Virus record (IMG/VR): IMGVR_UViG_2565956717_000010
Location: 1 to 40,471 of that record
Strand: one strand, 5' to 3'
Source of the DNA: a virus
Taxonomy: Duplodnaviria > Heunggongvirae > Uroviricota > Caudoviricetes
Length of the DNA: 40,471 bases
The first letter of the stretch is position 1; each line of letters begins with the position of its first letter. The translations under genes were made by a program, and so were the position numbers. Under the pieces are notes generated by a model. The model was not told the origin of the DNA. It was given only the letters and a program-made list of their open reading frames with translations, and searched no databases. Positions 9,859-28,848 of the stretch are shown here, one piece after another.

Positions 9859-9861
9859 CTA

Positions 9862-10302: not shown

Positions 10303-13300
10303 CTATTTCATCTGCTCTTCAACTTTATTTAGTAACGGTGATATCGCCCACAGGTTCTGAAAAGGTAGCATTTTACGGACCGCGTGGGTTTGCTGGCTGT
10401 CAAATTCTCCGTTAAGTACACCATTCGCAACCGTCGCGGCATCACCGCCAAGATCAAAGGTAGGACCAAGTAAAGCACCAATAGCATTACGACTCTGAAA
10501 CCTTGATACCGGAGGCGCACCAAACATCGCGCCAAGACCAAACCTACCGCCGCTTATGTTCTCAACGGTATTCAGCGGCTCAGAGAGCCAGCCAAGCATT
10601 CCGCCCCGGTCGATCCCCTCTTTCACAAGGTTATTCCAGCTGTAGTCGATATCGCGACCGCTTAACTTCTGTTTCATCATATATACCATTGAGCCAAGCG
10701 CAATCGTGCCAAGCGCACCAAGATAGAATGCAGCATCGCCCTGCTGGATACCAGATACCAGCACCCTGTTATGCTGTGCGAAGATAAACGTTTTGAACTG
10801 CGTGATCATCTTCCAGCCTTCTTTACTAAAAAACAGCGGTGTATCACCTACGCCAGGCGTTACAATCACTGAGTCTACATCTTTCAGCACTGCAGACTGG
10901 AAAATCTCTCTAGCGAAACGGTCATCCCACAGATGACTATGCCCGGTTAACAGCCCGTCCATATCCTCTCCGTGCTTCCCGAATTGCTCCCCGATTCGGC
11001 GCAGAACATCTTCATTGATGCCGACCTGTGCCATCTTCCGCATTTCACTTTTGGAGAGCGTGCCACCAGCAGAAACTTGGCGAGCCGCGTCAAGTATCCT
11101 CGACTGCACTATCATCCCGGACCATGATTTAAGTGCGCTGTTCCACTGATTCATCAGCGTCCAGTTACCGAATTTCTGCGTCATCCAGTTCAGACCTCGC
11201 TCAGCGGCGCTTCTCCGGCTATAGGGGTCAGTAAGATCCGCTATAGCCTTTGTACGCGTAGACAGGACATAATCAAGCCCAACGGCCATTTCTCGCAAAT
11301 CCCTAGTTGCAATTTTCACTGAGTCCATATTTTTAAGCATGCTTACCATTGGTCCGAGAGATTTTCTCAGGCCATGCTGCATCATCGGTCGCATCAGATC
11401 AGTTGCAGCGGAGACAGTCATTCCACCAAGCAAACGGAGGAAGTTAATATTCCTAGCAACTCGCCCGGCACGAACAAAGAAACTGCGTGGATCTTGAGGT
11501 GCGCCGTAAGTACCAAGCAGTCGATCACGCATAGCCGTAATATCCCTAATATCAGCCTCCCGTTGCTTCTCAAGAACTGCACGTCGTTTAGGTGTTTTAG
11601 CCTCTTTTATTAGCCGGGTATATTCCTCACTAACCTGACGGATTTGCTCCCCCATATCTTTACGGCCAAACTGCGCAGTCAGCTCAATTTCTGGTGCCAC
11701 CTGCCGGAGATAACTTTCCATGATGTAGTTAACATCTGATTCAAGAAAATCTTCTATACGCTCATCAGGAATAAGCAGCGTTCTGCTTTTAGTGAAACCA
11801 GCCCGACCAACGAGTCTCTCTGGGATAATATCGGCTGGTACAAGCCCGGAAGGTGCGCCTATTATTTTATTCACGATCTCGTCAGCAGCGTCCTCTGCTT
11901 CCTCTCGGGATAGAGGCTCCATCTGCTTCAGTGCTCGTTCGCGGCTTGCATTCAGCCTTGTGGTTGAATTTGCCCGTTTTTGCAGTCGGCGAAGCTCAGA
12001 ACGATATTTCCGTGGATTATCCAGCAACTCCATATGGCGCTGATAGACAGGAAGCTCACTCTTTGCCTGCGCTATATCATCAAGGCGTGTTTTAAGGTCA
12101 GAGCTTTCTTTCATCATTCTTGCCTGAAGTTTTTCTGATGAAGTCTCGGCCAACTCTTTTTCTATTCTTGTAAGACGCGCCTGTGTGTCAGTCTCCTGAG
12201 ATATAAGCTTATTTCGTTTATCCAGTTCTTCCATGAGTAGAATTTTTTTACCAGACCATTTCTCCGCTTCAGCGATTTCACTAGCGAGAGCATCAGCGCG
12301 CGGTGCCGATTCCTCTGCAGTTTTTAGCAATGAATTTATCCTTTCAATTCGCTGACCTGCTTTGTCAGCACCTTTGGCACTAATCCCTTGTATCCAGTTG
12401 GCAATTCGCCCTCTGAATTCAGTGCGGTCGGAAAGTATCTTATCGAACTTATAAATGCGGGGAAGATAACTTTTCGCCGTCACGACATCGATATCCTCAG
12501 GAAGGATCCCCAGTTCCTGCATACGGGCTTTTGTGGTCTCGAAAATGGGGCGGATTCTGGCGGCTGCTTGTGAAACCTCAGGAATATCACTCTGATCACC
12601 ACGGCGCATAGCCATGCCAACAGCTTCATTGAAATCAATAAAGTTCATCCTCTTCACGCCGCGGGCGCTAACAGATTTGCTGTACTGCTGGTAAGCATCA
12701 CGAGTGGCTTCCATCTGCTTATAAAGCATGGCGTCGTATTGCTTAATCTTAGTCTCGACTGCCGTAAACGTAGCCAACCCCTCATCATTTTTGGCGAAGA
12801 AATAGTTATTTTCGGCAAGCTGCTGGTTAATCTGACGGGAGACAAGAGATGGTGATTGAGCCAAGCGGCCAGCAGGAGTGACACTCAACGTTTTGTTAGC
12901 AAGTCCAAGTCCAGCGAGCTGTTCCTGATCGAGTGTGGTATTGAAAACCTGAGCTGCACCAATGCTTTGAGGAGAATCCATACCTCGCAAATGATTACCT
13001 ACTGAGTTAACCACTGCCTCGCGCGCGCTAGGTCCAGCAAGTAGCTGTGCACCAGCACCAAGGATCCCACCAACGAGAGCATCAACAACAACGTTCGATA
13101 CGCTCTCCATCGGTGAGCGAGCTTCCTGAGTGGCCTGTAATGCGGCTTCTGATACTCCCCCACCAGCAGCATTCGCCAGGGCAAAACGCCCTGCCGTCTC
13201 AGCAATACTTCCTCCACGCGCTACCGCCCCTACAGGGATAAACATTGCAGCCACATTAACCGGGTCTATCATTCCCATTGCTAAGCTTGAAATAGTACCA

Positions 13301-13692
13301 GCACCACCCATTTCAGATAGATATTCTCTATCTGTTCTTTGCTTATCGATTCGATGTTTAATTGCCATTGTTTCTTCATGCGAACCGGAGTTGATAAACG
13401 AATCTGCAAAATCTTCATAGCCTTTAATATCTGCTGCATCGTTATCAAATGGGTTATATCCTTCAACCCTGTCAAACTGACTGAAAGGAGCACTGGCAAT
13501 AAAGCTACCCAGCGTGTTATCTATACGAAATGCTGCTTGTCTAGACCTTTGAACGCGTTGATCACTGGTAAATGGGTTCACAGCAGAAAGCAAAGAAGGT
13601 GTTTCCATATAGAAATTACTGTCATCAGGTGCTGCTATTTGCTGAATATCCTCGCCAAGCAACTCTTTAGGATCCTGTTCATATATCGGCAT
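10303..13692 (-). CDS. Large internal virion / DNA-ejection protein (T7 gp16-like position)
   Basis: 1129 aa; long coiled-coil middle; last and largest of a translationally coupled internal-protein series upstream of the tail fibre, as in T7 gene order. Confidence 0.6.
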   Translation of the reverse strand: MPIYEQDPKELLGEDIQQIAAPDDSNFYMETPSLLSAVNPFTSDQRVQRSRQAAFRIDNTLGSFIASAPFSQFDRVEGYNPFDNDAADIKGYEDFADSFINSGSHEETMAIKHRIDKQRTDREYLSEMGGAGTISSLAMGMIDPVNVAAMFIPVGAVARGGSIAETAGRFALANAAGGGVSEAALQATQEARSPMESVSNVVVDALVGGILGAGAQLLAGPSAREAVVNSVGNHLRGMDSPQSIGAAQVFNTTLDQEQLAGLGLANKTLSVTPAGRLAQSPSLVSRQINQQLAENNYFFAKNDEGLATFTAVETKIKQYDAMLYKQMEATRDAYQQYSKSVSARGVKRMNFIDFNEAVGMAMRRGDQSDIPEVSQAAARIRPIFETTKARMQELGILPEDIDVVTAKSYLPRIYKFDKILSDRTEFRGRIANWIQGISAKGADKAGQRIERINSLLKTAEESAPRADALASEIAEAEKWSGKKILLMEELDKRNKLISQETDTQARLTRIEKELAETSSEKLQARMMKESSDLKTRLDDIAQAKSELPVYQRHMELLDNPRKYRSELRRLQKRANSTTRLNASRERALKQMEPLSREEAEDAADEIVNKIIGAPSGLVPADIIPERLVGRAGFTKSRTLLIPDERIEDFLESDVNYIMESYLRQVAPEIELTAQFGRKDMGEQIRQVSEEYTRLIKEAKTPKRRAVLEKQREADIRDITAMRDRLLGTYGAPQDPRSFFVRAGRVARNINFLRLLGGMTVSAATDLMRPMMQHGLRKSLGPMVSMLKNMDSVKIATRDLREMAVGLDYVLSTRTKAIADLTDPYSRRSAAERGLNWMTQKFGNWTLMNQWNSALKSWSGMIVQSRILDAARQVSAGGTLSKSEMRKMAQVGINEDVLRRIGEQFGKHGEDMDGLLTGHSHLWDDRFAREIFQSAVLKDVDSVIVTPGVGDTPLFFSKEGWKMITQFKTFIFAQHNRVLVSGIQQGDAAFYLGALGTIALGSMVYMMKQKLSGRDIDYSWNNLVKEGIDRGGMLGWLSEPLNTVENISGGRFGLGAMFGAPPVSRFQSRNAIGALLGPTFDLGGDAATVANGVLNGEFDSQQTHAVRKMLPFQNLWAISPLLNKVEEQMK

Positions 13693-16439
13693 TATTTGCC
13701 CCCTGCGTATATATTGCTCGGAAGGTAATTGGCTGAACCATAACCGAATGGTTTGGTCAGATCTGGAGGAGTATATCCATCTTTATTGCTGAACTGCGGC
13801 AGCGGATTGCCTTCTCTCCGCACTCTAGCCTCATCAACACGTTGTTGCTGGAACTGAATGGTTTGCCTGTACATTGGAGATGTCAGCTGATCCGGCTTGA
13901 AACGAACAGGGAGACCATTTTCTCCAATATAATTTCTCGGTTCTATCGCTCCGTTTGCGTCAGGCTGTAAAACCATAACAGCATAACTCCTATCCCTTGC
14001 CGTAAGGCCATCAGAAACAAGTATTAAGTCCGTATCACTGCGAGGACCGCCAAAGGATTTTGATTTAAGCTCGCGTTTTTCCTGCTCCCACTGCCCCTGT
14101 ATCCAGTTACCAGCACCATTATTTACTCCGTACAATGCCTCAGGTGCATACTTCATAACCTCTGCTTTGCCATTAACCGTAGAAACTCCCCAGGTGGTTC
14201 TGATCATGGCATTGGTCATTTTCTCAGCCTGTTCTGCATCGCCACCTGTCTGTACAAAGTTAGCATCGTAAATTGTCTGGTAATCTCGCTGATAGGCCGC
14301 ATTTGATTTTCCTGGATCGGTAATATCCGGAGACCACGAACCAAAGGAAGTCAGACTGCTGGCGTTATTTTGTGCAGCAGTTGCCCTCGCCGCGACATAT
14401 TTTTTGTCTCGCATGGCAGTGGAAAGCATCTGTTTCATTCGGTCATCCTGTTGGAACACCTGGCTGTAAGCCATATCAACAGCCTTATCCTCCGGCACGC
14501 CAGCGCGGGAATAATCGTAAACCTTGCCGTAAAATGCCATCGTACTTTTATCAAGTGTTGCCGCTGCCGCCGGATTATTATCGAATAACTGACCGTAGAA
14601 TTTTGCCATCGGGACAACCAGCGCAGGATCTCTTGATGTTGCTCCACTGTTAAGCATTGTTTTAACCTGAGTTGGTATCATGCCGCTTTTAGTTGTGACG
14701 GTGACCAGTGTATTGATGCTCTGCGGATCAGATATGGAAAACGAAGGCGCGATATCCTGCGCGAAATAACGGTCTACCGCTGCCTGATTGTTTTTGTCGT
14801 TCGGGTCCAGCGGGAAGTTATTTTGCATTGAAGACACGAACCTGTTTCTTCCCTGCTGAATCTCCCACTCCCTATCCATCTCTTTAAATTTGGCCTGCAT
14901 TTTCTCCCAGCGTTGCTGGTTAGCTGCAAATCCAGGAGCGTTTGGATCCTGTGGACGTAAACGTTCAAGAATGTCTTGTCGTCCTTCTGGAGTGAGGTCT
15001 TTAGCGGCACCAATGACACCTCCATATTGTATCTGCGCCTGCATATCCTTCCACTTCATAGCGCCAATGCGCGGACCATTGGCCCGGATAAAATCGTCCT
15101 CAGAAGGTAACTTCTCAGGTTTCAATCCTTCATCAAGGGCTGAATATGCATCTTTAACTACGGTGCTAAGCTGGTCCGCATACTGCTGGCGGTACTGATT
15201 TCTCAGCTCATTAGCCTGCCTCAATGCCTGTATTTGCATTTGAGGGCTCATAGCATCAAATGCCGCATTGCCCGTATAACGCTTAGGTGAATCAAGGTTA
15301 GTTAGACCAAGGGCTGCCGAGATACCAGTTTCAAGCTGTTCGGTGCTATAAGGCATACTGCCATTTTCGTGTTTAATAATCCCAGCACATAAAGCAGCTA
15401 GTGTCTTTGGGTTAGAGATATCAAGCTGATCATTCTCCCCAACACCAAGCTCACCACACAATGCCCTAATATAAGCATCCGTATTATTACCATCACTAGC
15501 CGGAGCATAGCGATTAACAATCTCGCTAACGGTGTCATAGCCTTGACGCTGGTAAGACAACATATTTTTACCCAACGCGCGGATTCCATGCTCAGGGGTA
15601 GCAAACGTTGCAAAACGTCCATCGCTACCGATCTGACCTTCCCACGGGTTAGATTTGCTCGCTTCAATATTACCAGGGTTATTATTACGTAAACCACGAG
15701 CATCCAATGAATTACCATGTGATATTGCACGACTCACACCATCAAGATCCCCTGGCTCTCCATTAACCTGAAGAAACTCGTTGTATTTTTGAGCGATATT
15801 TCCTATCCATGCTTGCTGCCCCATTTGTTCCTTGAGCTGAGTTTTCTGCTGAACACGCCACTCATCAGGAAGCCCATGCGCATCAGCGTATTGATCAATA
15901 GATTCAAATCGCTGCTTGGCTAAATCGACAAATGCTTGGTTATCGCTATATAGCCCCGCAGACTGAGTGACAGCCAATGCATTTCCTGACAAATACGTTT
16001 GATCTTGGAATTGCTGAAACTGCCCAACTTCATATCGACGTGCCTGATTGTAATAAGACTGCATAGACTGCTGGAGTTGAAAGGATAATTTATTCCTTTC
16101 CTCACTTTCAGGAATTGAGCCTAATAATGCCTGAGCCCTTTCCTGCATATTTTTCATAACAGCGTCACTCTGACCAAGAGCGTTTTTACCCTGTTTAGAA
16201 ATCAGCCCACTTTCAGGGTTGTTAATCTGGTCATCTGCAAATTGGTTAAATTGCAGTAACGCCTCCTGGGCCATAGCAACATTCGCTTTCTGCCTGGCTT
16301 CACCATATGCCACCGCATACTGATCTGCGACATTCGCCAGCACCTGACCTGCTTGAGGAACATCGAAGATCTGAAAACCACCGGTTTGCACACCACGACT
16401 TTGCACCTGGCGTCCGGATGTAGTAGGAACAACAGGCAT
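13692..16439 (-). CDS. Internal virion protein (T7 gp15-like position)
   Basis: 915 aa; start overlaps upstream stop; position in T7-like order. A segment (RNNNPGNI...GRFATFATPEHGIRA) may be a cell-wall-acting domain but I cannot assign it. Confidence 0.55.
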   Translation of the reverse strand: MPVVPTTSGRQVQSRGVQTGGFQIFDVPQAGQVLANVADQYAVAYGEARQKANVAMAQEALLQFNQFADDQINNPESGLISKQGKNALGQSDAVMKNMQERAQALLGSIPESEERNKLSFQLQQSMQSYYNQARRYEVGQFQQFQDQTYLSGNALAVTQSAGLYSDNQAFVDLAKQRFESIDQYADAHGLPDEWRVQQKTQLKEQMGQQAWIGNIAQKYNEFLQVNGEPGDLDGVSRAISHGNSLDARGLRNNNPGNIEASKSNPWEGQIGSDGRFATFATPEHGIRALGKNMLSYQRQGYDTVSEIVNRYAPASDGNNTDAYIRALCGELGVGENDQLDISNPKTLAALCAGIIKHENGSMPYSTEQLETGISAALGLTNLDSPKRYTGNAAFDAMSPQMQIQALRQANELRNQYRQQYADQLSTVVKDAYSALDEGLKPEKLPSEDDFIRANGPRIGAMKWKDMQAQIQYGGVIGAAKDLTPEGRQDILERLRPQDPNAPGFAANQQRWEKMQAKFKEMDREWEIQQGRNRFVSSMQNNFPLDPNDKNNQAAVDRYFAQDIAPSFSISDPQSINTLVTVTTKSGMIPTQVKTMLNSGATSRDPALVVPMAKFYGQLFDNNPAAAATLDKSTMAFYGKVYDYSRAGVPEDKAVDMAYSQVFQQDDRMKQMLSTAMRDKKYVAARATAAQNNASSLTSFGSWSPDITDPGKSNAAYQRDYQTIYDANFVQTGGDAEQAEKMTNAMIRTTWGVSTVNGKAEVMKYAPEALYGVNNGAGNWIQGQWEQEKRELKSKSFGGPRSDTDLILVSDGLTARDRSYAVMVLQPDANGAIEPRNYIGENGLPVRFKPDQLTSPMYRQTIQFQQQRVDEARVRREGNPLPQFSNKDGYTPPDLTKPFGYGSANYLPSNIYAGGK

Positions 16440-17014
16440 CAGTAACCTCCTATTTTGAATCGGGAGTCAGAATTCATAAAACCTGAGTTAGATAACATTG
16501 GCGTCCCACCACTAGATGTACTTCCTTTAGAGAACGGACTCCACGTCCCACCAAACATCTGGTACGCACCGTATGCCTTCAGAGGCGCAGTGAGTAAAGT
16601 TGTTGCTGCTCCCACATTCCCCTGTTTACGGGCTGAACTGGCTTCTGCTTTATAGTTGGCAGCCTGAACCTGATAACCGTAAGCCTCGCGTTGCGCGTTA
16701 TTCACCGTCGTCAGAGAATCAAGAGCGCCAAACTGGGCAGTGTCGCCAAATATATCCAGCGCGTTACCTGTAGATAAATCAGCGCCGGTAGCCCCCATTG
16801 TCGCCGCCTGTGTACCAAGCCGCTGTCGGGTCTCTCTGCGCCGTTGCTCAGCTTCAGCGTTACCTCTGTTTATTGCATCATTTGCCTGAGCTGTGGCTAT
16901 ATCTGCGTTCGCTTCTGCAACCTTCGAGGCATACTTTCCCTGTTGGTACTGGGTGTATGCCTGAATGCCACTCATGGCGAGCATTGCGCCACCAGCAATA
17001 ACCGGATCGCACAT
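16439..17014 (-). CDS. Internal virion protein (T7 gp14-like position)
   Basis: 191 aa, Ala/Gly/Gln-rich; translationally coupled (TAATG-type overlap) with neighbours. Confidence 0.45.
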   Translation of the reverse strand: MCDPVIAGGAMLAMSGIQAYTQYQQGKYASKVAEANADIATAQANDAINRGNAEAEQRRRETRQRLGTQAATMGATGADLSTGNALDIFGDTAQFGALDSLTTVNNAQREAYGYQVQAANYKAEASSARKQGNVGAATTLLTAPLKAYGAYQMFGGTWSPFSKGSTSSGGTPMLSNSGFMNSDSRFKIGGY

Positions 17015-17478
17015 TATTTTCTCTCCATGTGAAATCTGTGGAAATTAAGACCAAGAGCACCATAAGGCGCGGCTTCTTCAAGCCTGAATCCAAGCCAGTG
17101 CAGCCATGCTTTGGCAACATGGTTTCGCTCGTCGACATAGTTTTCCAGGCGCGGATAAACTGCCAGCATCTGCTGCAATACAGGGCGGCAGTGGCGAAGA
17201 AATGTCTTCTGATATTTTTCGATACGGCTGGTTCCGACCAGCCAGGGCGTACCATTGCCACCGATCATTGACGCCGGAGATACGCCAAACATGGTTACCA
17301 GTTCTCCGTTCGCAAATCCTGACCAGGCCATAGTCGCAGTACGCAGACCAACACGCAGCGCATCTTCGGTAGTCATCAGTGATACCGCATACAGTTCGTC
17401 AATATCAGCCTGACGAACATCCGGCAAAATCATCTGAAGATGCTCTTCGGTTGCGGGAATAACTTGAACATCGATCAT
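17014..17478 (-). CDS. Hypothetical virion protein (T7 gp13-like position)
   Basis: 154 aa; overlapping start/stop with neighbours (ATGA). Confidence 0.4.
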   Translation of the reverse strand: MIDVQVIPATEEHLQMILPDVRQADIDELYAVSLMTTEDALRVGLRTATMAWSGFANGELVTMFGVSPASMIGGNGTPWLVGTSRIEKYQKTFLRHCRPVLQQMLAVYPRLENYVDERNHVAKAWLHWLGFRLEEAAPYGALGLNFHRFHMERK

Positions 17479-20877: not shown

Positions 20878-20927
20878 ATACACTCCTGCAATAAAGGGGC
20901 CGAAGCCCCTTGTCGGATTCGCGAGGC

Positions 20928-21263
20928 TTACACGCCTAGTTCTTTACGCTTATCTGCGATCTTCTCGCGGAGCGTTTCGGCTTTAGCGTTATGGTGTGGC
21001 TTCTCGTTAAAGAGCAATTCGTACTCTTCACGGAGCTTATCCAGTTCACCATCATCTGACACATCGTTGATGATTTTGGTGCTGGTTGCTGCCATTGACA
21101 CCTTTCCTGCAACTTTTGCTTTTGCCTGTCTGGCTGCATCGTTAACAGGTTCCAGTGCGCTACCAGGCTCACCTTCGTATTCGATTTCTGCCCCCTCCGG
21201 CCACAGAGTGTTATGGATATGAGAGAGGCGCAGAACGCGGTATCTTGGTTTCTCACCTGACAT
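20928..21263 (-). CDS. Hypothetical head-associated protein
   Basis: Start set at ATG 21261-21263 with AAGGTG RBS; charged, Lys/Glu-rich. Confidence 0.45.
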   Translation of the reverse strand: MSGEKPRYRVLRLSHIHNTLWPEGAEIEYEGEPGSALEPVNDAARQAKAKVAGKVSMAATSTKIINDVSDDGELDKLREEYELLFNEKPHHNAKAETLREKIADKRKELGV

Positions 21264-21273
21264 CGATATCACC

Positions 21274-21711
21274 TTAACCAGTTACTTTTGAGCGGATCGG
21301 ATACGGCGTATTGGCATCAACATCAAGACTGATACCAGCAGTGAATTCGCCAGCCGTAAGTGGGCCAGTTGCGACGGAGTAGTTAACACGCAGATATCGC
21401 TGAACACCGGCAGGCACCTTTGCAGAAACAACTCGTTTACCTGCTGTCAGGGCGGTCTTTGCCAGTGCGCCACTATCATAAATAGTGGTCCATGAGCTGT
21501 TATTCTCACTCGTCTGCAACTGGATGTTTACAGTTGCATCACCGCTTGCTGCGGCGGCTGCGTTAACCAGCACCCAAAACTCAAGCGGGTAACCCACGCC
21601 GATATCACGACGTTTTCCGTCAATTGGACCGAGATCGATTACGTCAGTAGAAGCCGCGGTATCAGTTACCGCCTGTGCTTCGGAGAACATCAACAGTTTG
21701 TCGGTGATCAT
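21274..21711 (-). CDS. Hypothetical head protein (possible decoration protein)
   Basis: 145 aa directly after capsid gene; GGAG RBS. Confidence 0.45.
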   Translation of the reverse strand: MITDKLLMFSEAQAVTDTAASTDVIDLGPIDGKRRDIGVGYPLEFWVLVNAAAAASGDATVNIQLQTSENNSSWTTIYDSGALAKTALTAGKRVVSAKVPAGVQRYLRVNYSVATGPLTAGEFTAGISLDVDANTPYPIRSKVTG

Positions 21712-21762
21712 CTTCTTTCTCCATTAGTGGGTCTGTTACGACCCACAGGTTAATAACAGGCG

Positions 21763-22755
21763 TTACACCACGCGGGCTTCTGTTTCCAGAAGCGCATCAG
21801 TTTCACGGATTGGTACACCACGGAATGAAGTCCACCACTCGCCTTCTGTCTCTTTTACGCTGATAGCCAGAGATGTTTTCTCCAGAGACTGCAGATCAAG
21901 AGCCTGGCCTACAGTGCGGTTCATGTAGAACACCGGGCGGCCCATGCCACGGTTTGGAATGCGATGTAGTGCTTTAACCATCAACTTCGCAATATTTGCG
22001 GCAGAGGATGGTTCTGAAAGATTGCTGACATCGATGTTTGCAATGCGAACAACATAACGCCAGTCACGCAGAGCAAGTCCGTTATCCCATTTGTAATGGG
22101 TGCGATAGCCTTCGTACTTGCCGCCATTAGCATCTTCCAGTGTCACCTGGCCTTTATCTTCCATCTGGATGCCAGCCTTCTGCCCTTTCGGGAAGATGCC
22201 ATGCACGGTGTTTTCGCCCCACACCACTAACCAGATTGAGGTGTTATCTGTACCCGTGCCACCAGCATCAATGATGTTCTGAGCATTACCCGCAGACAGG
22301 CTGGAATAGCGGGAGGACAGTCCCATAAACTGCTGAGGATTAACGCTGGAATCACCATAAAACAGCGTCTGCGCCATCTGCTGATTCATCGCTTCAATAA
22401 ATGCGCGGTCTTCAGAAAGGCGGAATTCGGCGGTATTGCCGTTCAGATCAGCCAGTGACTTATCGACTTCCGCATAGGTTTCCAGCATGCCAACGGAATC
22501 GGTTACCTGCACTGTGGTTGATTTGCTTGGCTGTACGCCATAGTTCAGCAAACGCCAGGTAGCTGAAGGTAAACCAGAACGAATGGTGGTTCGGTGTCCG
22601 GTAGGAAGGTTCCCTTCGACAAAAGGCATATCCTGAAGGATCGGGTTAGTTTGACCGAGAAGCTCGATAATCTTATCGACTTTCCCGTTTGGATCGACGC
22701 GCTTACCCCAGTCAGCCAGCGTTAGCGCAGTTAAGCCTTTAACAGCCATTGTCAT
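21763..22755 (-). CDS. Major capsid protein
   Basis: 330 aa immediately downstream of scaffold gene in a portal-scaffold-capsid order; alternative start at 22749. Confidence 0.6.
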   Translation of the reverse strand: MTMAVKGLTALTLADWGKRVDPNGKVDKIIELLGQTNPILQDMPFVEGNLPTGHRTTIRSGLPSATWRLLNYGVQPSKSTTVQVTDSVGMLETYAEVDKSLADLNGNTAEFRLSEDRAFIEAMNQQMAQTLFYGDSSVNPQQFMGLSSRYSSLSAGNAQNIIDAGGTGTDNTSIWLVVWGENTVHGIFPKGQKAGIQMEDKGQVTLEDANGGKYEGYRTHYKWDNGLALRDWRYVVRIANIDVSNLSEPSSAANIAKLMVKALHRIPNRGMGRPVFYMNRTVGQALDLQSLEKTSLAISVKETEGEWWTSFRGVPIRETDALLETEARVV

Positions 22756-22763
22756 TTCCTCTC

Positions 22764-23465
22764 TTATTTGCCATAGAGCACTTCGGCCGCACTACGCTGG
22801 CCTTCATTACCACCGGTGACCATGCCATCTTCAGACATCGCCTTTCCGATTTTCACGAACGTTTTGACCAGATCAGGGTGATTACCCAGCCCGGTGGTGT
22901 TCAGATATTCTTTGAGCTCAGGTGTCCCGAACTGGTCAAGCGCACGCTGTGCGGCGCTAAGGTTAGAAATCAACTTGTCGCCACCGATTTCTTTGTCAGC
23001 TTTTACATCCGCAGCCCACTGCTCGGTTGTTTTCTGCCAGGCTTCTGCCTGGCGCTGCTGAACACCTGCCAGAATCTTCGGATAAGCATCAACCAGCTTT
23101 TGCGCTTGCTCGTTGGTCAGGTTAAGTTCTCGCGCCACAGGCTCGAATTCCTTCAACGCTTCTGTATCCAGCTCTACGCCTTCGGCAGCCTGAAACTCGT
23201 ACTTCTCAGGCGCACCCTCTGGTTTATCGCCGTCCTTTTTTTCATCCTGCTTATCGTTTTCAGGCTTTTTGTCATCAGCAGGTTTATCGCCATCAGCAAC
23301 AGGTTGTGGCTTATCACCTTCCGATTGTGATGGATCACCAACTGGAGCAGGGTTATCACCTGCAGGCGCTGACGGTTCTGACGCAGCCGGAGCTGCTCCA
23401 CCATCGACTGGTTGCTCATTGCAAAGACGGCGATACAGCAAACGCTCAAATAAATTCATGATCAC
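22764..23465 (-). CDS. Scaffolding protein
   Basis: 233 aa, acidic, Pro/Ala/Asp/Lys-rich low-complexity N-terminal half then helical region; lies between portal and capsid genes. Confidence 0.6.
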   Translation of the reverse strand: MIMNLFERLLYRRLCNEQPVDGGAAPAASEPSAPAGDNPAPVGDPSQSEGDKPQPVADGDKPADDKKPENDKQDEKKDGDKPEGAPEKYEFQAAEGVELDTEALKEFEPVARELNLTNEQAQKLVDAYPKILAGVQQRQAEAWQKTTEQWAADVKADKEIGGDKLISNLSAAQRALDQFGTPELKEYLNTTGLGNHPDLVKTFVKIGKAMSEDGMVTGGNEGQRSAAEVLYGK

Positions 23466-23758
23466 TCCTGTTCACTGGCCTCTTTGGCCATCTTCAAATA
23501 CTGTTCAGGGCAATGCGCCATAACGCGCTGAAACAGTTCCAGCGCCAGATTGCGTTGCCCCTCATTAAATGCCATAGCCATAGCGTCCATCGGTGAGATA
23601 GCAGAAAACACACGGCCTTTCTCCAGCACCGACCAGACAACGCGACGCCCCTGTTCACTGCTCATGACAAAGCGAATGTCATCAATTTCACGCTGTGCCA
23701 TGTCACGTTGCTTACGGGCGTTTTCTTCTTTCAGTTGATCGTCTTCGTAATCTGTCAT
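23462..23758 (-). CDS. Hypothetical head-assembly protein
   Basis: 98 aa, overlaps portal stop and scaffold start. Confidence 0.45.
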   Translation of the reverse strand: MTDYEDDQLKEENARKQRDMAQREIDDIRFVMSSEQGRRVVWSVLEKGRVFSAISPMDAMAMAFNEGQRNLALELFQRVMAHCPEQYLKMAKEASEQE

Positions 23759-25434
23759 TGTGATTGCCCACCCTGACCACTAACTGCATTCGCCATAGCT
23801 GACAAAACACTCGGATCCGAAGTTTTAGCTTCGCTTAGCGTCTTGGCACCCTGTGCCGCCGCCATCCCCATCGCCATCATTTGTTGCTGCTGTTGCTGCT
23901 GTGCCCGTTGCTGGCGAGCCTGCTCAACCTGTTCCTGCGGAACAATGACGGTTGGAGACACTCCGGACATATCAGCGAATGCATCGATTGCCTGATCAAC
24001 GTTGAGTTTGTCGAGAGCTTCTGGTTTCGCTTGCGCAAGTTGACCAATGAAGTTAACCGTGGACGCCAGACTGGACAGGCCGATAGACTTCTGCGCCTGA
24101 GCCATGACGGAAATGTATTCGACCTTCAGGGGCATACCTTCCATCGCGTCAGGCGGGGGCGGCAGCATGTTTTTACGCACCATCATCGAGAAAGCGCGGT
24201 CAATGAGAGGATTAAGACATTCGTCGTTCAGACGCTCCAGAACCGGCCCCAACATCAGAAGTTTTTCTTCTTTCATTTCGATCACCGCTTCAACAGGCAT
24301 CGAACGGGTATTGATGTTCTGCAACATCATGAACAGATCGACAAAGTAGGCACTGTTAATGATTTGACGAGTGTCCTGAATGTCTGCCACCAGATCTGCT
24401 GTACTGGGGTTAACCAGATAAGCAGGCCTGAAACCATCCTGACCAGTAATCTGATCGATATACGTGATGTCGCCAGGAAGAAGGGAGGCGCGCTGATTCT
24501 TGAGGGAAGTCGGAGCAATCATCGGCGGATTGGTGGCTTTATCAATCAACTGCGACTTGCGCTTCTGGAGAAGCTGCAATGCCTTAACAGGTCCAAGCGC
24601 CAGCATACCCGGGCATGATGATCCATAAACATCTTCGCCGTTAACTTCCCAGCGCGGAGCCATAATTGGAAACTCATCGAATCCGGACTCACGCAACAAC
24701 TTGTCGTTATCGCCACCAACCTCGTAATAAACCGATTTGAATGGCTTGTTCTTGCTATCCAGCTTCGATGTATCGCGGTCAATGTTCGGGTAAACCGAAT
24801 GCATCACTTCAATCCACTTCTCGTAGGTGCCGCTTTCCCACATGCTTTTTACGGATTCGCTGACGTTATTTAGCCCGAACTCCTGAACAAGCTGACGAAC
24901 AGTCATAGAGAACTTGCGAAAACAGGTGTCCACACTGCCACGAGGTGAGTTAGCCAGGTAGTAACTGCCTATCGGGAATGGCATTGTGCGAATGATGTCC
25001 TCGTCATCCTCCAGCACCGCCATTGCACCAGTGCTGTATGTGCCGAGGCTTCCGTATAACTGCGGAAGAGACTGGTAGAGATTCGACTTATTGAACATAT
25101 CGTTCATGCGGTTCTGAACTGCCTCAAGCCACAACTTAACAGGGCCATAGTCCATCATTTCAGGATCTGGCGTAGCCAGGCGAAACCACGGACGGGCGGG
25201 GCTTGTTATGCCTGACATCATGCCGCTGGCAAGAGTGCGCGCCGCCATAGTCCCGGTCGAATCAATAATGCGTGTATTGCGTCGATCGTTACGGTTTACC
25301 TCAGAAGTCAGAAAGCGGGAACCACGCGGGTTGATGTAATCACTCAACTCGCGCCAGTGCGGCTCGAACGACTGACGCTCGCTTTCAAGTTGTGCGAACT
25401 GTTTGTTCAATCGCTCTTTAGTTGTTTCCGCCAT
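23755..25434 (-). CDS. Portal protein
   Basis: 559 aa; GGAG RBS; follows terminase genes; Gln/Ala-rich C-terminal tail. Confidence 0.7.
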   Translation of the reverse strand: MAETTKERLNKQFAQLESERQSFEPHWRELSDYINPRGSRFLTSEVNRNDRRNTRIIDSTGTMAARTLASGMMSGITSPARPWFRLATPDPEMMDYGPVKLWLEAVQNRMNDMFNKSNLYQSLPQLYGSLGTYSTGAMAVLEDDEDIIRTMPFPIGSYYLANSPRGSVDTCFRKFSMTVRQLVQEFGLNNVSESVKSMWESGTYEKWIEVMHSVYPNIDRDTSKLDSKNKPFKSVYYEVGGDNDKLLRESGFDEFPIMAPRWEVNGEDVYGSSCPGMLALGPVKALQLLQKRKSQLIDKATNPPMIAPTSLKNQRASLLPGDITYIDQITGQDGFRPAYLVNPSTADLVADIQDTRQIINSAYFVDLFMMLQNINTRSMPVEAVIEMKEEKLLMLGPVLERLNDECLNPLIDRAFSMMVRKNMLPPPPDAMEGMPLKVEYISVMAQAQKSIGLSSLASTVNFIGQLAQAKPEALDKLNVDQAIDAFADMSGVSPTVIVPQEQVEQARQQRAQQQQQQQMMAMGMAAAQGAKTLSEAKTSDPSVLSAMANAVSGQGGQSQ

Positions 25435-25448
25435 TTCAATGACTCCGG

Positions 25449-25655
25449 TTACTGACCAAGTAGCGTTTTACCGCTGGTATTAGCGGTTGATGTGTCACCC
25501 TGAGAACCGGTAAGCAGCGTAGAACTACGACCAGCAGCAGCGCGACGGCGACGAGTTTCTTCGTCGCGGGCATCAACAACGGCGGCATCCTGCTCCTGTG
25601 GTGCTGCCTGAACTTCTGGTGTTGCAGGCACTGACGGTGAGCTACCCATGCACAT
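25449..25655 (-). CDS. Small hypothetical protein upstream of portal
   Basis: 68-aa ORF ending 14 nt before portal ATG; weak RBS; Ala/Arg-rich. May be non-coding. Confidence 0.25.
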   Translation of the reverse strand: MCMGSSPSVPATPEVQAAPQEQDAAVVDARDEETRRRRAAAGRSSTLLTGSQGDTSTANTSGKTLLGQ

Positions 25656-25745
25656 ATCAATGACTCCGTACGCAATTAAATTATTACCAATTTAACCATA
25701 TATGATTTATTTATCGTAGATAGTTGACATTTAACGCACGAATTA

Positions 25746-25760
25746 TTACCTTTCAGGTAA
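25746..25760. promoter_or_regulatory. Operator-like palindrome TTACC-N5-GGTAA (site 4)
   Basis: TTACCtttcaGGTAA, identical core to site 1; TTGACA hexamer 16 bp upstream on the plus strand (25724-25729); between portal operon and tRNA. Confidence 0.45.
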
Positions 25761-26082
25761 GCAAATAGTTCATTCAGGTTATTAACCTGACTGGCTTGTC
25801 GTTAAATTGAACAGGTGGAGTGAGCTTTTATTTTGAGCAGTACGGCGTATGGCACATGCGCCGATAGCGGTCTGGATACGCTTAAGGGGCACCCTCCCTT
25901 GCTCGGGCAAACGAACCAGGTAGCCGGAATGTGCAAGTCGAGCGGTTTTATTCCGCGCACGGGGATTCACCATCCCGGCGATTCGGTGTGACGCCTCGGA
26001 AGAGACGAGGGTACAACGATGAGAGCATTTATGGAGCCGCGACAAAGTGTGGCGCCTTAACAGGCTAAGTGCTCTCAGCGTT

Positions 26083-26159
26083 GTGGCATTAGCTCAGTTG
26101 GACAGAGCAACCGCCTTCTAAGCGGTTGGTCGCAGGTTCGAATCCTGCATGCCACGCCA
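26083..26159 (+). tRNA. tRNA-Arg (anticodon UCU)
   Basis: 77 nt, hand-folded cloverleaf: acceptor GTGGCAT/ATGCCAC, D-stem GCTC/GAGC, anticodon stem ACCGC/GCGGT with loop CTTCTAA, T-arm GCAGG-TTCGAAT-CCTGC, discriminator G, encoded CCA. Acceptor stem differs from the host argU I remember. Confidence 0.85.
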
Positions 26160-26202
26160 GAATCACGCCTAAGGACCGTGATGCCAGAAGTTCCAGGGGC
26201 TT

Positions 26203-26244
26203 GGCGGTGATGGTTTCCCTTGAAGGACTATCACCGCCCTTTTT
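26203..26244 (+). terminator. Intrinsic terminator downstream of tRNA
   Basis: Stem GGCGGTGAT/ATCACCGCC with a long loop, followed by CTTTTT. Confidence 0.45.
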
Positions 26245-26322
26245 ACAGCAGGACGCCATTGCGATGACTTCATGCTGTAAACCAGTACAGCCACGGAAGG
26301 CATAACTCATTGCTTCCAGTTC

Positions 26323-26346
26323 GCCCGGTTCGCCGGGCATTTTTTT
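26323..26346 (+). terminator. Intrinsic terminator (second, downstream of tRNA)
   Basis: Stem GCCCGG/CCGGGC with TTCG tetraloop, then T7. Confidence 0.6.
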
Positions 26347-26475
26347 AAGGTGTGAATCATGAAATACGAATTCGATGGATTTTGATGTCGTGACATGTCA
26401 CAAACAGCCAGCCGATGAGCTGGCTTTGTTTTATCCTCATCAGAGGATATCAACGACATTATCCCCACCAGCGGA

Positions 26476-27951
26476 TTAAGCATAGGGATCGTAATCTGTG
26501 ATGGCCTTGCCTTGCTGGTTCTGCTGCCCGGGAATTCGCAGACGCCTCGACACAGGGAACGCAAACGTCAGCAGTAGCGCATCGCCTTTACCCGGCGAAC
26601 GCCCAAGCCGCTCCTTGATATCCTCCTTCGGTTCGATAACGATTTTACCGTCCACGCGAACTTTGTACTCTGCCGCCGACAGGTCGTCTGCAGTTTCCTG
26701 GTCATCCAGCATGCCGCCCAGCCTCAGCCATGTCTTACATGAGTTGAACATCTCCCCACGCTTGTTAAGCATCTGCGGGTCAGTAGACGCGCCACCGAAC
26801 GGAACAAGTTGCCATGTACGACCCCAGCCGTCACCGATTGACTTCAAACCGGTTCCGTAACCGAAGTCGATGAACACCGCGTCAGCCTGATACTGGTCTT
26901 CAAAGTCAGCGATACGCTTCGCCATAATCAGATCGTCGGTAGTCTTGTTGCCAGTCCACAGCACCTTACTGTGTAGCCCCTGCCGCAGGTATATCACAGC
27001 GTCATCAACGCCGGAGTATGCCGGGTCAACGCCGATTATCACCGGAGCATGTGCAACCTGCGCAGCGGTTACCACCCGTTTCATTGCCTCGTCAGTAAGA
27101 CCGGTAGGGATAAACTGCAATTCAGATGCATCAGGGAATATGCCACGCACACGGATTTTAACGAAGTCGCTGTCTTCCCCGTAGTCATCAACCCATTTCT
27201 GCAACTGCTGTTTGTTGGTACCTTCCACCGTCCGACTGTCAATCTGCGCAGTTTTCCAGCGGTGTTTATACTTGCGGAAACATTCACGGAAACGTCCGGT
27301 ATTACGTGTAGGGTTTCCGAACGCCACCCAGATAATCTCAGTGTCTTCGTCCGTAAGCGCACCCTCAGCAACTTCCCACACCAGATCCGCAATGTTCGAC
27401 GCTTCATCAAACACCACGATGATGCGTTTGCGCTCGTTGTGTAGTCCGGCGAATGCCTCAGTGTTGTGCTCAGACCAGGGGATTGCGTCAGCTCGCCACC
27501 GCTTGTCGTGCCCAGGATCATTGCTGTACATCGCAGTAGCGGTACAGGTAAACCAGTCTTTCGTGATAGCAAGGTTCGACCACTTGATAATTTCCGGCCA
27601 GGTCTTCGTTCGTAGCTGGTTGTCGGTGTTGGCGGTCACCACGACCTTACAATCCTCGCAAGTGGACATGCCCCAGTTGATCAGCATTGAGATGAATGCG
27701 GATTTACCAATACCGTGACCAGAAGCGCGTGCCAGCATAAGCGGCTGATAGCGCGTCTCTGGATTCTGCAGGTGATCACGTATCTCTCGGAACGCATCAG
27801 CCTGCCACTGACGTGGACCGGTGGCATGTGCCAGTTCAGTACCCTCTTCCCCCCACGGGAACGCATAGAGGGCATAGCCAAGCGGATCGTGAGTGAACCC
27901 TGCAATATCCTCGATCAACTGCTCTTCAGGAGATAACGCTGTATCTGTCAC
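26476..27951 (-). CDS. Terminase large subunit
   Basis: 491 aa; Walker A-like ASGHGIGKS; GTG start overlaps small-subunit stop (GTGA). Confidence 0.8.
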   Translation of the reverse strand: MTDTALSPEEQLIEDIAGFTHDPLGYALYAFPWGEEGTELAHATGPRQWQADAFREIRDHLQNPETRYQPLMLARASGHGIGKSAFISMLINWGMSTCEDCKVVVTANTDNQLRTKTWPEIIKWSNLAITKDWFTCTATAMYSNDPGHDKRWRADAIPWSEHNTEAFAGLHNERKRIIVVFDEASNIADLVWEVAEGALTDEDTEIIWVAFGNPTRNTGRFRECFRKYKHRWKTAQIDSRTVEGTNKQQLQKWVDDYGEDSDFVKIRVRGIFPDASELQFIPTGLTDEAMKRVVTAAQVAHAPVIIGVDPAYSGVDDAVIYLRQGLHSKVLWTGNKTTDDLIMAKRIADFEDQYQADAVFIDFGYGTGLKSIGDGWGRTWQLVPFGGASTDPQMLNKRGEMFNSCKTWLRLGGMLDDQETADDLSAAEYKVRVDGKIVIEPKEDIKERLGRSPGKGDALLLTFAFPVSRRLRIPGQQNQQGKAITDYDPYA

Positions 27952-28544
27952 TGATTACCATCCTGACGTTCTTTGAGTCGCTTCCTGGCTGCTGCTATGC
28001 GATCAGCAATTGTCACATTCACATTAACATCCAGACGTTCTTTGAACGCGTTGACATCAACATGCTTACCAATCAGCTCAAGGTTCTTCACCTTGTCAGG
28101 CCATTTAATTTTTTTGAGGATTGTCTCTATCGAATCCTCGTTCATGTTCATGATGGTCGATGACAGATCAAAGCCACTAAGCGTAGTGCGCCAGATTTTC
28201 GGCCACTCGCGGATTGGCTTAAGGCTCCCATCGTCGTTGAGGATGTCGATCACGTCCATCTGGTCGATCTCCACCAGGCGCATGAGAACGTAATCAGCAC
28301 TGACGCGCATTCGTTTGTTGCGCTCCTCCATCAACTCGGCAATCCGTTTCTGAATGCGTTCATCGCGCATCATGACACTGGCTTTAACTGCCGCTGTATT
28401 TGGGGAGAATCCTGCATTAATCGCTGCCTGAGTCTGGTTTTCAGGCGTTTTGATGTATGACTGGCAATAAGCCTCCTGCATTGCTGTTAGTGGCTTAAAT
28501 TGCGTTGATTTGCGTTTATAGGTTTTAGGTTCAGCAGGCATCAT
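27948..28544 (-). CDS. Terminase small subunit
   Basis: Conserved-looking KPLTAMQEAYCQSYIKTPENQTQAAINAGFS segment; start placed at Met-27 of the ORF because the upstream 26 codons are translated from the tandem palindrome repeats. Confidence 0.6.
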   Translation of the reverse strand: MMPAEPKTYKRKSTQFKPLTAMQEAYCQSYIKTPENQTQAAINAGFSPNTAAVKASVMMRDERIQKRIAELMEERNKRMRVSADYVLMRLVEIDQMDVIDILNDDGSLKPIREWPKIWRTTLSGFDLSSTIMNMNEDSIETILKKIKWPDKVKNLELIGKHVDVNAFKERLDVNVNVTIADRIAAARKRLKERQDGNQ

Positions 28545-28558
28545 AACCACCGTGGTAA
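28544..28558. promoter_or_regulatory. Operator-like palindrome, one mismatch (TAACC-N5-GGTAA; site 9a)
   Basis: Directly abuts the terminase small-subunit start; part of a tandem pair inside direct repeats GTGGTAATAGT. Confidence 0.35.
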
Positions 28559-28561
28559 TAG

Positions 28562-28576
28562 TTACCGTTGTGGTAA
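28562..28576. promoter_or_regulatory. Operator-like palindrome TTACC-N5-GGTAA (site 9b)
   Basis: TTACCgttgtGGTAA, 18 bp upstream of the terminase small-subunit start. Confidence 0.45.
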
Positions 28577-28618
28577 TAGTACCATGCAAAATAAAGCCGC
28601 CATAGTTGGCGGCAGTAT

Positions 28619-28831
28619 TCAAAGTCCATCAAATTCATCGTAAAAACTCTCGTCAAGATACCCTTCCCATTTACCGCGAATGAAAATTACATCCTCGCCG
28701 CAAGGGTGCTGACTGTCGATAACTATATCCCTCCTGACGCAACCATACTTATGCATGAGAAATTTAACCTCTTTCGGAAAATTTGCTGAGTTATCTCTCA
28801 TATCTTCAAGGTCGTAGCGTATTTTTGGCAT
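28619..28831 (-). CDS. Hypothetical protein
   Basis: Start set at MPKIRYD with AAGGTG RBS; no recognisable motif. Confidence 0.4.
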   Translation of the reverse strand: MPKIRYDLEDMRDNSANFPKEVKFLMHKYGCVRRDIVIDSQHPCGEDVIFIRGKWEGYLDESFYDEFDGL

Positions 28832-28848
28832 AACACCTTCGTGACATG

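Follow-up and report, generated by a model that had tools for sequence, protein, structure and literature searches.

An epsilon15/phiV10-type prophage of K1-type Escherichia coli and the relation of its tail and ejection genes to those of phage T7

The IMG/VR virus record IMGVR_UViG_2565956717_000010 was analyzed over its positions 1 to 40,471, and this whole stretch of 40,471 nucleotides (nt) is referred to as the window. The window very probably carries an integrated, apparently complete temperate podovirus prophage of the epsilon15/phiV10 lineage (Uetakevirus type). Its host is an E. coli strain of K1 type, in which it is flanked by yfgI on one side and by the guaA 3′ end on the other. An earlier sequence-only reading had portrayed 10303 to 28622 as a mosaic in which a T7-like virion gene order is joined to lambda-type immunity, replication, and recombination modules. 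The observation was borne out and its interpretation supported for a temperate podophage with T7-related tail and ejection genes; the capsid and terminase, however, are not of the T7 type, and the label lambda strictly applies only to the P protein and to the general layout. In this long-established temperate lineage, the T7-like gene order reflects an ancient common origin of the podovirus tail/ejectosome module, not a fresh join between T7 and lambda.

Lineage and integration site

Megablast revealed close relatives of the epsilon15/phiV10 kind. The segment from 10303 to 28622 shows 97.6% DNA identity to Escherichia phage EC.W1-9 (PP445227) over 97% of its length, and from 16533 upward about 98% identity is shared with phiV10, TL-2011b, vB_EcoP_ZX5 (ZX5), phiv142-3, PAS61, and the O157 typing phages 9 and 10. 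The early region (28000 to 40471) consists of mosaic pieces that are 96 to 98% identical to phages also matching the structural region; over the structural and early regions, DNA identity to EC.W1-9, phiV10, TL-2011b, ZX5, and PAS61 is 97 to 99%. At the protein level, the portal, major capsid protein (MCP), adaptor, nozzle, and gp13-like protein of phiV10 are 99% identical to those of the window. Furthermore, the gene order is collinear with that of the phiV10 and epsilon15 records, running TerS-TerL-portal-head-adaptor-nozzle-internal proteins and, farther on, tailspike-lysis-integrase-early genes.

Phage similarity begins precisely at position 1162, and the first 1161 nt are host chromosome. 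The features that define the boundaries are as follows.

1 to 1161, plus strand: host E. coli flank with yfgH (1 to 516) and yfgI (532 to 1071); Pfam glycine-zipper and DUF5384
1162 to 1178, minus strand: attachment (att) core at the prophage-host junction, ATTGAGTGGAAATGATT
39215 to 40471, minus strand: P4-type tyrosine integrase; Pfam Arm-DNA-bind_3, Phage_int_M, and Phage_integrase; annotated as integrase in phiV10

Both yfgH and yfgI are E. coli core genes: among 5,426 complete genomes of the species, 5,422 carry this region, annotated under those names. The open reading frames (ORFs) at 1 to 516 and 532 to 1071 were considered as phage morons and rejected, since they are host yfgH and yfgI. 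The att core ATTGAGTGGAAATGATT differs by 1 base from the published attP core ATTGAGTGGGAATGATT of phiV10, epsilon15, and ZX5 (PMC9782041). It adjoins yfgI, the neighbor of guaA, which fits integration at the guaA 3′ end, with the guaA side lying beyond the window. The tyrosine integrase named in the earlier reading is present; its gene start abuts the right end of the window, and thus the second att junction is placed outside.

A close relative, ZX5, has already been isolated. This Uetakevirus is temperate and specific for K1, its tailspike is an endosialidase, and it has the attP core and integrates at guaA (PMC9782041). Transmission electron microscopy showed its tail to measure 15 nm (PMC9782041), a short tail of the podovirus kind and not the long tail that would have spoken against the earlier reading. 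Its genome (MW722083) is about 98% identical to the window over 1162 to 9262 and 16533 to 28622, whereas the DNA of the 915- and 1129-amino-acid (aa) genes is unmatched. Prophages of the same type, with an endosialidase tailspike and the 1129-aa gene, occur in K1 genomes of extraintestinal and avian pathogenic E. coli (ExPEC and APEC), including IHE3034, APEC O18, and sequence type 95 (ST95). In genomes of this sort, RefSeq names the 191-aa protein "virion core protein, T7 gp14 family," the 201-aa protein "phage connector family protein," and the 823-aa protein "phage tail protein."

Tail and ejection genes in relation to T7

The late genes lie on the minus strand and comprise the following features.

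26476 to 28622, minus strand: terminase genes, with TerL at 26476 to 27951 and TerS from 27948 to about 28541 (longest ORF to 28622); Pfam Terminase_2; annotated in phiV10, EC.W1-9, and epsilon15
20554 to 25434, minus strand: seven head genes (the next seven lines); Pfam Head-tail_con PF12236, GP7, Bbp19, Bbp16, and Gp10-like
23755 to 25434, minus strand: portal, 559 aa; PF12236
23462 to 23758, minus strand: Bbp19-like protein, 98 aa; Pfam Bbp19
22764 to 23465, minus strand: protease/scaffold, 233 aa; "protease" in PHROGs and RefSeq
21763 to 22755, minus strand: MCP; NCBIfam equivalog MCP_gp7_epsi_15 (E = 9e-124), Pfam GP7
21274 to 21711, minus strand: Bbp16-like protein; Pfam Bbp16
20928 to 21272, minus strand: 114-aa protein
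20554 to 20883, minus strand: gp10-like staple; Pfam Gp10-like
19949 to 20554, minus strand: head-to-tail adaptor (gp11 type), 201 aa; PDB 8CK1_E, the Carin-1 connector, E = 1.5e-26
17478 to 19949, minus strand: tail nozzle (gp12 type), 823 aa; PDB 8CK1_A, the Carin-1 nozzle, E = 2e-217
17014 to 17478, minus strand: gp13-like internal virion/assembly protein, 154 aa; phrog_308, common to T7 gp13
16439 to 17014, minus strand: gp14-family internal virion protein, 191 aa; Pfam PF24072 T7_gp14, 33.7 bits versus a cutoff of 27 bits
13692 to 16439, minus strand: ejection protein at the gp15 position, 915 aa, with an embedded peptidoglycan-hydrolase domain; phrog_1044, phrog_992
10303 to 13692, minus strand: gp16-family ejection (internal virion) protein, 1129 aa; phrog_342 (E = 3e-235), which also holds T7 gp16
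3386 to 6505, minus strand: chimeric tailspike, 1039 aa, in which an N-terminal virion anchor (aa 1 to about 200) is followed by a K1 endosialidase part and, at the C terminus, an S74 chaperone; Pfam End_N_terminal, End_beta_propel, End_tail_spike, and Peptidase_S74

The ORF sizes and positions given in the earlier reading were reproduced in our ORF table: from 20554 to 10303 the products have 201, 823, 154, 191, 915, and 1129 aa, and the tailspike has 1039 aa, none with an internal stop. The overlapping stop and start codons described for this run were likewise recovered. At six successive junctions (20554, 19949, 17478, 17014, 16439, and 13692) they overlap by 1 nt, as TAATG or TGATG, and a purine-rich Shine-Dalgarno-like stretch precedes each of them. 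Overlaps of 4 nt join TerS to TerL, the portal gene to the 98-aa gene, and the latter to the 233-aa gene. Stop/start overlaps are kept in phiV10 and epsilon15, in contrast to T7, which has none and shows gaps of 4 to 80 nt at the corresponding junctions. The 1-nt overlaps are consistent with translational coupling of the tail and ejection genes, which can reasonably be supposed from such an arrangement. In addition, an intrinsic terminator hairpin, GGGGCTTCGGCCCCTTTATT, with a T-tract at about 20884 to 20927 divides the head genes from the staple-adaptor-nozzle-ejection run, and the epsilon15 record carries a terminator annotated at the equivalent place. Plausibly, this hairpin would reduce transcription of the tail genes relative to the capsid genes.

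All 16 virion proteins were compared with T7 gp8 to gp19 by blastp and phmmer, and nothing significant was returned. Because these pairwise searches were empty, profile and fold searches were employed. An AlphaFold2 model of the adaptor was built from a shallow alignment of homologues with at least 54% identity and reached a predicted local distance difference test score (pLDDT) of 88. Foldseek matched it with probability 1.0 to T7 gp11 (7BOX, 6R21, and 7EY7) and to the KP32 tail tubular protein A, at template modeling (TM) scores of 0.55 to 0.62 and about 13% identity (E = 9e-7 for 7BOX). Since the homologues initially gathered for the nozzle (at least 82% identity) were too close, its model was derived from a deeper alignment obtained by a representative search, giving a pLDDT of 88 and a predicted TM score of 0.84. 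This model matched T7 gp12 (6R21, 7EY9, 7BOY, and 9JYZ) with probability 1.0, E values of about 1e-22 to 1e-23, and TM scores of 0.52 to 0.55 over about 790 residues. Identity to the T7 adaptor and nozzle in the structure-based alignments is about 12 to 13%. Consistent with this, a profile of 36 nozzle-family sequences aligned collinearly with T7 gp12 over 113 columns in hhalign (E = 5e-5). These predicted structures show the adaptor and nozzle to be equivalent to T7 gp11 and gp12 at the level of fold.

The nearest solved tail structures are those of the Cobetia marina phage Carin-1 (PDB 8CK1) and the Legionella phage LME-1 (PDB 9EFK). The nozzle model superimposes on theirs with TM scores of 0.90 and 0.65 (about 44% and 16% identity), and the adaptor model with 0.85 and 0.68 (32% and 20% identity). 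The N-terminal anchor of the fiber is homologous as well, whereas the hosts and receptor-binding domains differ. Both phages were described as having T7-like virions, and LME-1 as a temperate element whose T7-like tail is closest to that of Carin-1; its authors also reported the N terminus of the Carin-1 fiber to be T7-like by fold (PMC12407071).

The families of several other products lead to T7 in the same way. PF12236 is matched both by the portal of the window (E = 2.5e-187) and by T7 gp8 (E = 2.8e-113). The 154-aa protein shares phrog_308 with T7 gp13, and its match to Pfam Phage_T7_Gp13 reaches 13.6 bits, below the 25-bit cutoff. In the case of the 1129-aa protein, the match covers positions 192 to 1227 of the phrog_342 profile, so that the N-terminal SLT (transglycosylase) domain of T7 gp16 is lacking. 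Its family aligned with the C terminus of T7 gp16 in hhalign (E = 7e-4) with a shared QFKTF/QFKSF motif, and tblastn with aa 645 to 1124 retrieved genes for an "internal virion protein with endolysin domain" in Proteus phages PM85 and PM116 and for a "putative internal virion protein" in Pelagibacter, Sphaerotilus, and Mesorhizobium podophages, with E values down to 2e-23 in that search. No ejectosome chain was retrieved from the PDB sequences, either by a profile search with the 1129-aa family or by single-sequence phmmer. A Pfam match of this protein to the baculovirus family DUF919 (23 bits over 46 residues) was set aside as a coiled-coil artifact.

The 915-aa protein is assigned to gp15 by position only. 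Its hydrolase domain (aa about 245 to 400; 15240 to 15705), the one part for which known structures were matched, is homologous to the N terminus of phage E1004 Gp29 (PDB 9VVP) and to the endolysin 7Q47; Pfam gave no match for the isolated hydrolase segment or for the C-terminal half of the protein. Thus, the hydrolase sits on the gp15-position protein here, versus the SLT domain on gp16 in T7, and swapping of hydrolase domains between gp16 and gp15 has been described (Swanson et al. 2022, PMC8954989). For the tailspike, equivalence to T7 gp17 is limited to the attachment domain: the N-terminal anchor matches Pfam Phage_T7_tail at a subthreshold 17 bits. The anchor is also homologous to the Carin-1 fiber in 8CK1 (E = 2e-30) and is 92% identical to that of EC.W1-9 over 227 aa and 68% identical to that of phiV10 over 166 aa.

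These data indicated that homology of the tubular-like proteins and their neighbors to podovirus families is detectable, through Foldseek for gp11 and gp12 and through Pfam T7_gp14, phrog_308, phrog_342, and PF12236. The T7 order gp11 to gp17 proposed in the earlier reading therefore holds by fold for gp11 and gp12 and by family for gp13, gp14, and gp16; it is positional for gp15, and for gp17 it reduces to an anchor domain with a subthreshold match. The relation itself is already documented. The curated epsilon15 record labels gp11 "HHpred: Tail tubular protein A {T7}," lists both gp13 and gp14 as internal virion proteins, and gives a lytic transglycosylase match for gp15. In a 2022 review, epsilon15 is one of the podophages listed as having gp14, gp15, and gp16 in a syntenic operon, and its T7-like core stack is noted (Swanson et al. 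2022, PMC8954989). The finding is thus correct and ordinary.

Points against the assignment and alternative explanations

Several results weigh against the assignment of the window to an epsilon15/phiV10-type prophage with a T7-related tail. Regarding integration, the second att junction lies beyond the window end. At the level of formal genus placement, phiV10 and epsilon15 are classified Uetakevirus species in their records, and a threshold of about 70% nucleotide similarity is in common use for ICTV genera. By local blastn, whole-prophage nucleotide similarity is about 71% to EC.W1-9, which is unclassified, about 56% to phiV10, and far lower to epsilon15; phiV10 and epsilon15 themselves are far less similar to each other, though they are placed in one genus. 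As to T7, the pairwise searches were empty, hhalign gave a probability of 0.07% for the adaptor family profile against gp11, and the Pfam families Tube and Phage_nozzle, which T7 gp11 and gp12 match, went undetected in the adaptor and nozzle of the window. Likewise, hhalign gave a probability of 1% for the 915-aa family against T7 gp15, and the PHROGs of the two differ. An NCBIfam scan left all tail and ejection proteins without a name. Nevertheless, gene content, synteny, att site, and operators indicate that the prophage belongs to the epsilon15-like group, a membership that a strict nucleotide threshold does not settle at the genus or species level.

The same kind of phage could be present as a defective, noninducible remnant whose coupled operon no longer functions. 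One att junction lies beyond the window, the att core is 1 base off the published attP, and inactivity has been reported for many gut prophages. However, the 16 structural and packaging ORFs all retain their full length and are free of internal stops, their proteins are 98 to 100% identical to those of the plaque-forming phages EC.W1-9 and phiV10, and the genes for lysis, immunity, replication, and the integrase are likewise intact. We therefore regard a remnant as unlikely.

Far less probable is a recent chimera that placed a T7-like (Autographiviridae) virion cassette on a lambdoid prophage backbone. The size order does equal that of T7 gp11 to gp16, and the portal, gp13, gp14, and gp16 fall into families common to T7. 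The two systems agree in the order portal-(scaffold)-capsid-adaptor-nozzle-gp13-gp14-gp15-gp16 and in the folds or families of gp8, gp11, gp12, gp13, gp14, and gp16. A recent transfer is hard to reconcile with identities of about 12 to 13% to the T7 proteins in structure-based alignments and with none detectable by blastp. Moreover, T7 is lytic, encodes its own RNA polymerase, uses another capsid family, keeps its terminase at the genome end, carries the transglycosylase on gp16, and has fibers rather than enzymatic tailspikes. In the window, the MCP is of the epsilon15 gp7 type and is accompanied by the gp10-like staple and the Bbp16- and Bbp19-like proteins, and TerS and TerL both lie upstream of the portal, as the earlier reading had said, with a small terminase of the Terminase_2 type. 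No RNA polymerase was found among the ORFs of at least 400 aa, each of which is assigned another function, and no RNA polymerase family was matched. Finally, the same architecture is kept in epsilon15, phiV10, TL-2011b, Carin-1, and LME-1. Taken together, these results effectively refute a recent chimera.

Least probable of all is a P22-like K1 prophage (Lederbergvirus, CUS-3 type) with a tail on the P22 gp4/gp10/gp26 plan: the host is K1, the phage is a temperate podophage, its endosialidase part (3415 to 5807) is 99.5% identical in DNA to CUS-3 siaK1, and epsilon15 gp14 and gp16 cluster with P22 in the 2022 review (PMC8954989), but the CUS-3 match is confined to that one segment, the portal belongs to PF12236, the MCP is an epsilon15 equivalog, the tailspike anchor is of the epsilon15/Carin-1 type, the nozzle model scores a TM of just 0.25 against P22 gp10 (9JG6; E = 6.5e-6) versus about 0.53 against T7 gp12 and 0.90 against Carin-1, and homologues were absent for those tested among P22 gp4, gp10, gp26, gp7, gp20, and gp16. 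CUS-3 is thus alike in being a temperate K1 podophage with the shared endosialidase part, whereas its remaining virion, with a P22-type tail, and its genome are unrelated.

Remaining modules and the distal ejection cassette

The other features of the prophage, which precede, follow, or interrupt the late genes, are listed below.

1266 to 3078, minus strand: lysis cassette with a membrane/holin-like protein (2674 to 3078), holin (2379 to 2687), glycoside hydrolase family 19 (GH19) endolysin (about 1760 to 2389), and DUF2514 spanin (1266 to 1763)
6578 to 10302, plus strand: variable accessory module, 3.8 kb, between the tail operon and the tailspike gene; poorly conserved among relatives
7041 to 7117, plus strand: isrK-like small RNA (isrK binds Hfq); Rfam gathering-score match
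7142 to 7226, plus strand: C4 antisense RNA; Rfam gathering-score match
7276 to 7926, plus strand: AntA antirepressor; Pfam AntA, PHROG anti-repressor
8243 to 9109, plus strand: 288-aa ORF; the PHROG matches of the ORFs in 8243 to 10302 are to function-unknown groups only (3630, 9944, and 8772)
9400 to 9858, minus strand: 152-aa ORF
9862 to 10302, plus strand: 146-aa ORF, whose end is 1 nt short of the stop codon of the 1129-aa gene
26083 to 26159, plus strand: tRNA-Arg(TCT), antisense to the late operon; ARAGORN, Rfam tRNA at 73 bits
31737 to 33334, minus strand: replication module with an initiator (32519 to 33334; Pfam HTH_36 and DnaT domain) and a lambda-P-family helicase loader (31737 to 32537; PF06992, E = 1.5e-56)
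32932 to 33079: iterons TCCCGTTTTTGGGATCATT, five 19-nt copies spaced by 24, 24, 36, and 45 nt within the initiator gene
33701 to 34804, both strands: immunity switch with a Cro-like gene (33701 to 33931, minus; 76 aa, phrog_35) and a divergent repressor gene (34086 to 34670, plus; 194 aa, Pfam HTH_3)
33968, 33999, and 34016 (OR-like) and 34728 and 34790 (OL-like): TTACC-N5-GGTAA operators of the immunity region
6610, 6990, 7993, 25746, 28544, 28562, 31623, 31685, 33968, 33999, 34016, 34728, and 34790: all TTACC-N5-GGTAA site positions
35275 to 37206, plus strand: recombination module with a YqaJ-type exonuclease (35275 to 36174) and RecT (36184 to 37206); Pfam YqaJ and RecT

Some labels of the packaging and head genes had to be revised. 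The TerS start at 28622 used in the earlier reading is probably an overextension, since the longest ORF (from TTG 28622) crosses an intrinsic-terminator hairpin (28613 to 28596) and two repressor palindromes (28544 to 28613 stretch) and since ATG 28541 is the start annotated in EC.W1-9 and epsilon15; the phiV10 annotation has the long form instead. The 233-aa protein had been called the scaffold. PHROGs and RefSeq name it "protease," and Pfam and PDB searches support neither role. TerL and the portal gene are separated by a spacer of 1 kb (25435 to 26475). On the strand opposite the late genes, it holds the tRNA-Arg(TCT), for which phiv142-3 and the O157 typing phages have an annotation as well, and several terminator-like hairpins. 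Other small opposite-strand ORFs occupy this spacer in phiV10, epsilon15, and EC.W1-9, and because of this variation it looks like a site of moron insertion.

The lysis cassette lies beyond the tailspike gene, as had been stated, and comprises Pfam Phage_holin_8, Phage_holin_3_7, Glyco_hydro_19, and DUF2514 in the order seen in phiV10 and epsilon15. After the tailspike gene there is no gene for modifying O-antigen or capsule, unlike in phiV10, TL-2011b, and epsilon15. Contrary to the earlier layout, the tailspike gene is not contiguous with the tail operon, as the 3.8-kb plus-strand accessory module intervenes. The isrK-like and C4 RNAs directly upstream of the AntA gene make up a predicted RNA-controlled antirepressor module in the style of P1/P7 immI. 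An ORF at 6925 to 7248 overlaps both RNAs and is probably no gene. Related prophages carry a YafO-family toxin in place of the ORFs at 8243 to 10302.

A Cro/repressor switch, named in the sequence-only reading, is present as a divergent pair of genes, and three TTACC-N5-GGTAA palindromes lie within the 154-bp region between them. This 15-bp palindrome occurs in 10 exact copies, where about 0.03 would be expected. Its sites are located in the cro/repressor region, 3′ of the repressor gene, past the P gene, within the antirepressor module, and 5′ of both TerS and the portal operon. In two pairs the spacing is exactly 62 nt, and phiV10 and EC.W1-9 have the sites at conserved positions. The palindromes were considered as a new regulon and rejected as such, since the same palindrome, where it lies upstream of TerS, of the portal operon, and of the tailspike gene of epsilon15, is already annotated in that record as a "repressor" binding site. 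From this distribution, the repressor seems to control late promoters directly.

Replication genes of the O/P kind with iterons had also been proposed. The lambda P protein and the five iterons were found, whereas the "O" protein is an initiator with HTH_36 and DnaT domains, not of the lambda O family. Lambda-type recombination did not hold up, as the module is a YqaJ exonuclease with RecT; no match to the lambda O-family initiator or to lambda Red (Exo/Bet) was obtained in Pfam. Since 35275 to 37206 is unmatched in the DNA of phiV10 and EC.W1-9, the recombination module is another exchanged cassette. The phiV10 and epsilon15 genomes resemble the window in portal, capsid, adaptor, nozzle, gp13- and gp14-like proteins, 1-nt overlaps, lysis cassette, integrase, repressor palindromes, and P-type replication, and they differ in having O-antigen-specific tailspikes, O-antigen-modifying genes, and a RecE-RecT fusion. 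Features of a lambdoid phage were observed in the P loader, the iterons within the initiator gene, and the divergent CI/Cro arrangement with multiple operators. The early region is loosely lambdoid in layout; strictly, P alone is a lambda family member.

For an epsilon15/phiV10-type prophage of this composition, the structures of T7, epsilon15, Carin-1, and LME-1 suggest how the virion could work. A dodecameric adaptor and a hexameric nozzle would dock on the portal, and six tailspike trimers at the adaptor-nozzle junction would digest the polysialic acid capsule. The internal proteins would then be ejected to form a trans-envelope conduit, with gp14 at the outer membrane, the 915-aa protein spanning the periplasm and cutting murein, and the gp16-like protein at the inner membrane. 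The tail and ejection genes would be expressed as a single, presumably coupled run with 1-nt overlaps, 3′ of the terminator that follows the head genes. Lysogeny may be governed by the P4-type tyrosine integrase, the CI/Cro-type switch with operators also 5′ of the late operons, and the C4-RNA/antirepressor module. The initiator probably binds the five iterons in its own gene and acts together with the lambda-P-type helicase loader.

The distal part of the ejection module sets the window apart from the two reference phages. Two genes (915 and 1129 aa) stand here versus three in epsilon15 (842, 634, and 918 aa) and three in phiV10 (837, 600, and 824 aa), so that the size match to T7 gp15 and gp16 put forward earlier is true of this variant but not of those phages. 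The breakpoint against phiV10 falls after codon 170 of the gp14-family gene, up to which identity is 95%, and the DNA match begins at 16533. The 915-aa protein is 44% identical to phiV10 p18 over aa 1 to 496 and has an unrelated C terminus, and protein comparison found no counterpart of the 1129-aa protein among phiV10 p19 and p20 (600 and 824 aa), which belong to PHROGs other than that of T7 gp16. A third arrangement is seen in TL-2011b (905 and 1004 aa), whose gp16-like protein is 36% identical. In contrast, EC.W1-9 has the same 915- plus 1129-aa module at 99.8% and 97.9% protein identity; it differs from the window in the enzymatic domain of its tailspike (an "eliminase," with the first 227 aa in common), in its accessory region at 7250 to 10302, and in its recombination module. 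Proteins related to the 1129-aa one occur commonly in prophages of Serratia, Pectobacterium, Rahnella, and Salmonella.

These data indicated that the exchange of the distal cassette within the lineage is real. It represents variation inside a known kind, and no discussion of the swap was found in the literature examined. As a more general proposal, which we offer tentatively and hold to be somewhat less than probable, the distal ejectosome of epsilon15-like phages may be an exchangeable cassette made up of the C-terminal half of the gp15-position protein and everything downstream, with its upstream breakpoint in the 3′ end of the gp14-family gene (about 16504 to 16533). This stretch holds a single full-length T7 gp16-family protein here, in EC.W1-9, and in many Serratia/Klebsiella prophages, versus two unrelated proteins in epsilon15 and phiV10.

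The epsilon15/phiV10 group has been characterized genomically since 2007 to 2009 and structurally since 2006. As a discovery, the present finding carries little weight: the T7 relation of the adaptor and ejection genes was on record, and the K1-specific member ZX5 had already been isolated and imaged. Its practical value lies in annotating correctly a prophage that occurs in K1 E. coli lineages of the neonatal-meningitis and avian-pathogenic kinds (IHE3034, APEC O18, and ST95), with its adaptor, nozzle, gp13-, gp14-, and gp16-family ejection proteins, endosialidase tailspike, and C4-RNA/antirepressor module. The swap of the distal module is a modest lead for studies of podovirus ejectosomes: if cassettes are functionally interchangeable on an identical portal-adaptor-nozzle-gp13-gp14 chassis, the lineage would offer a natural experiment that shows in what ways a podovirus ejectosome can be rebuilt in its periplasmic and inner-membrane parts.

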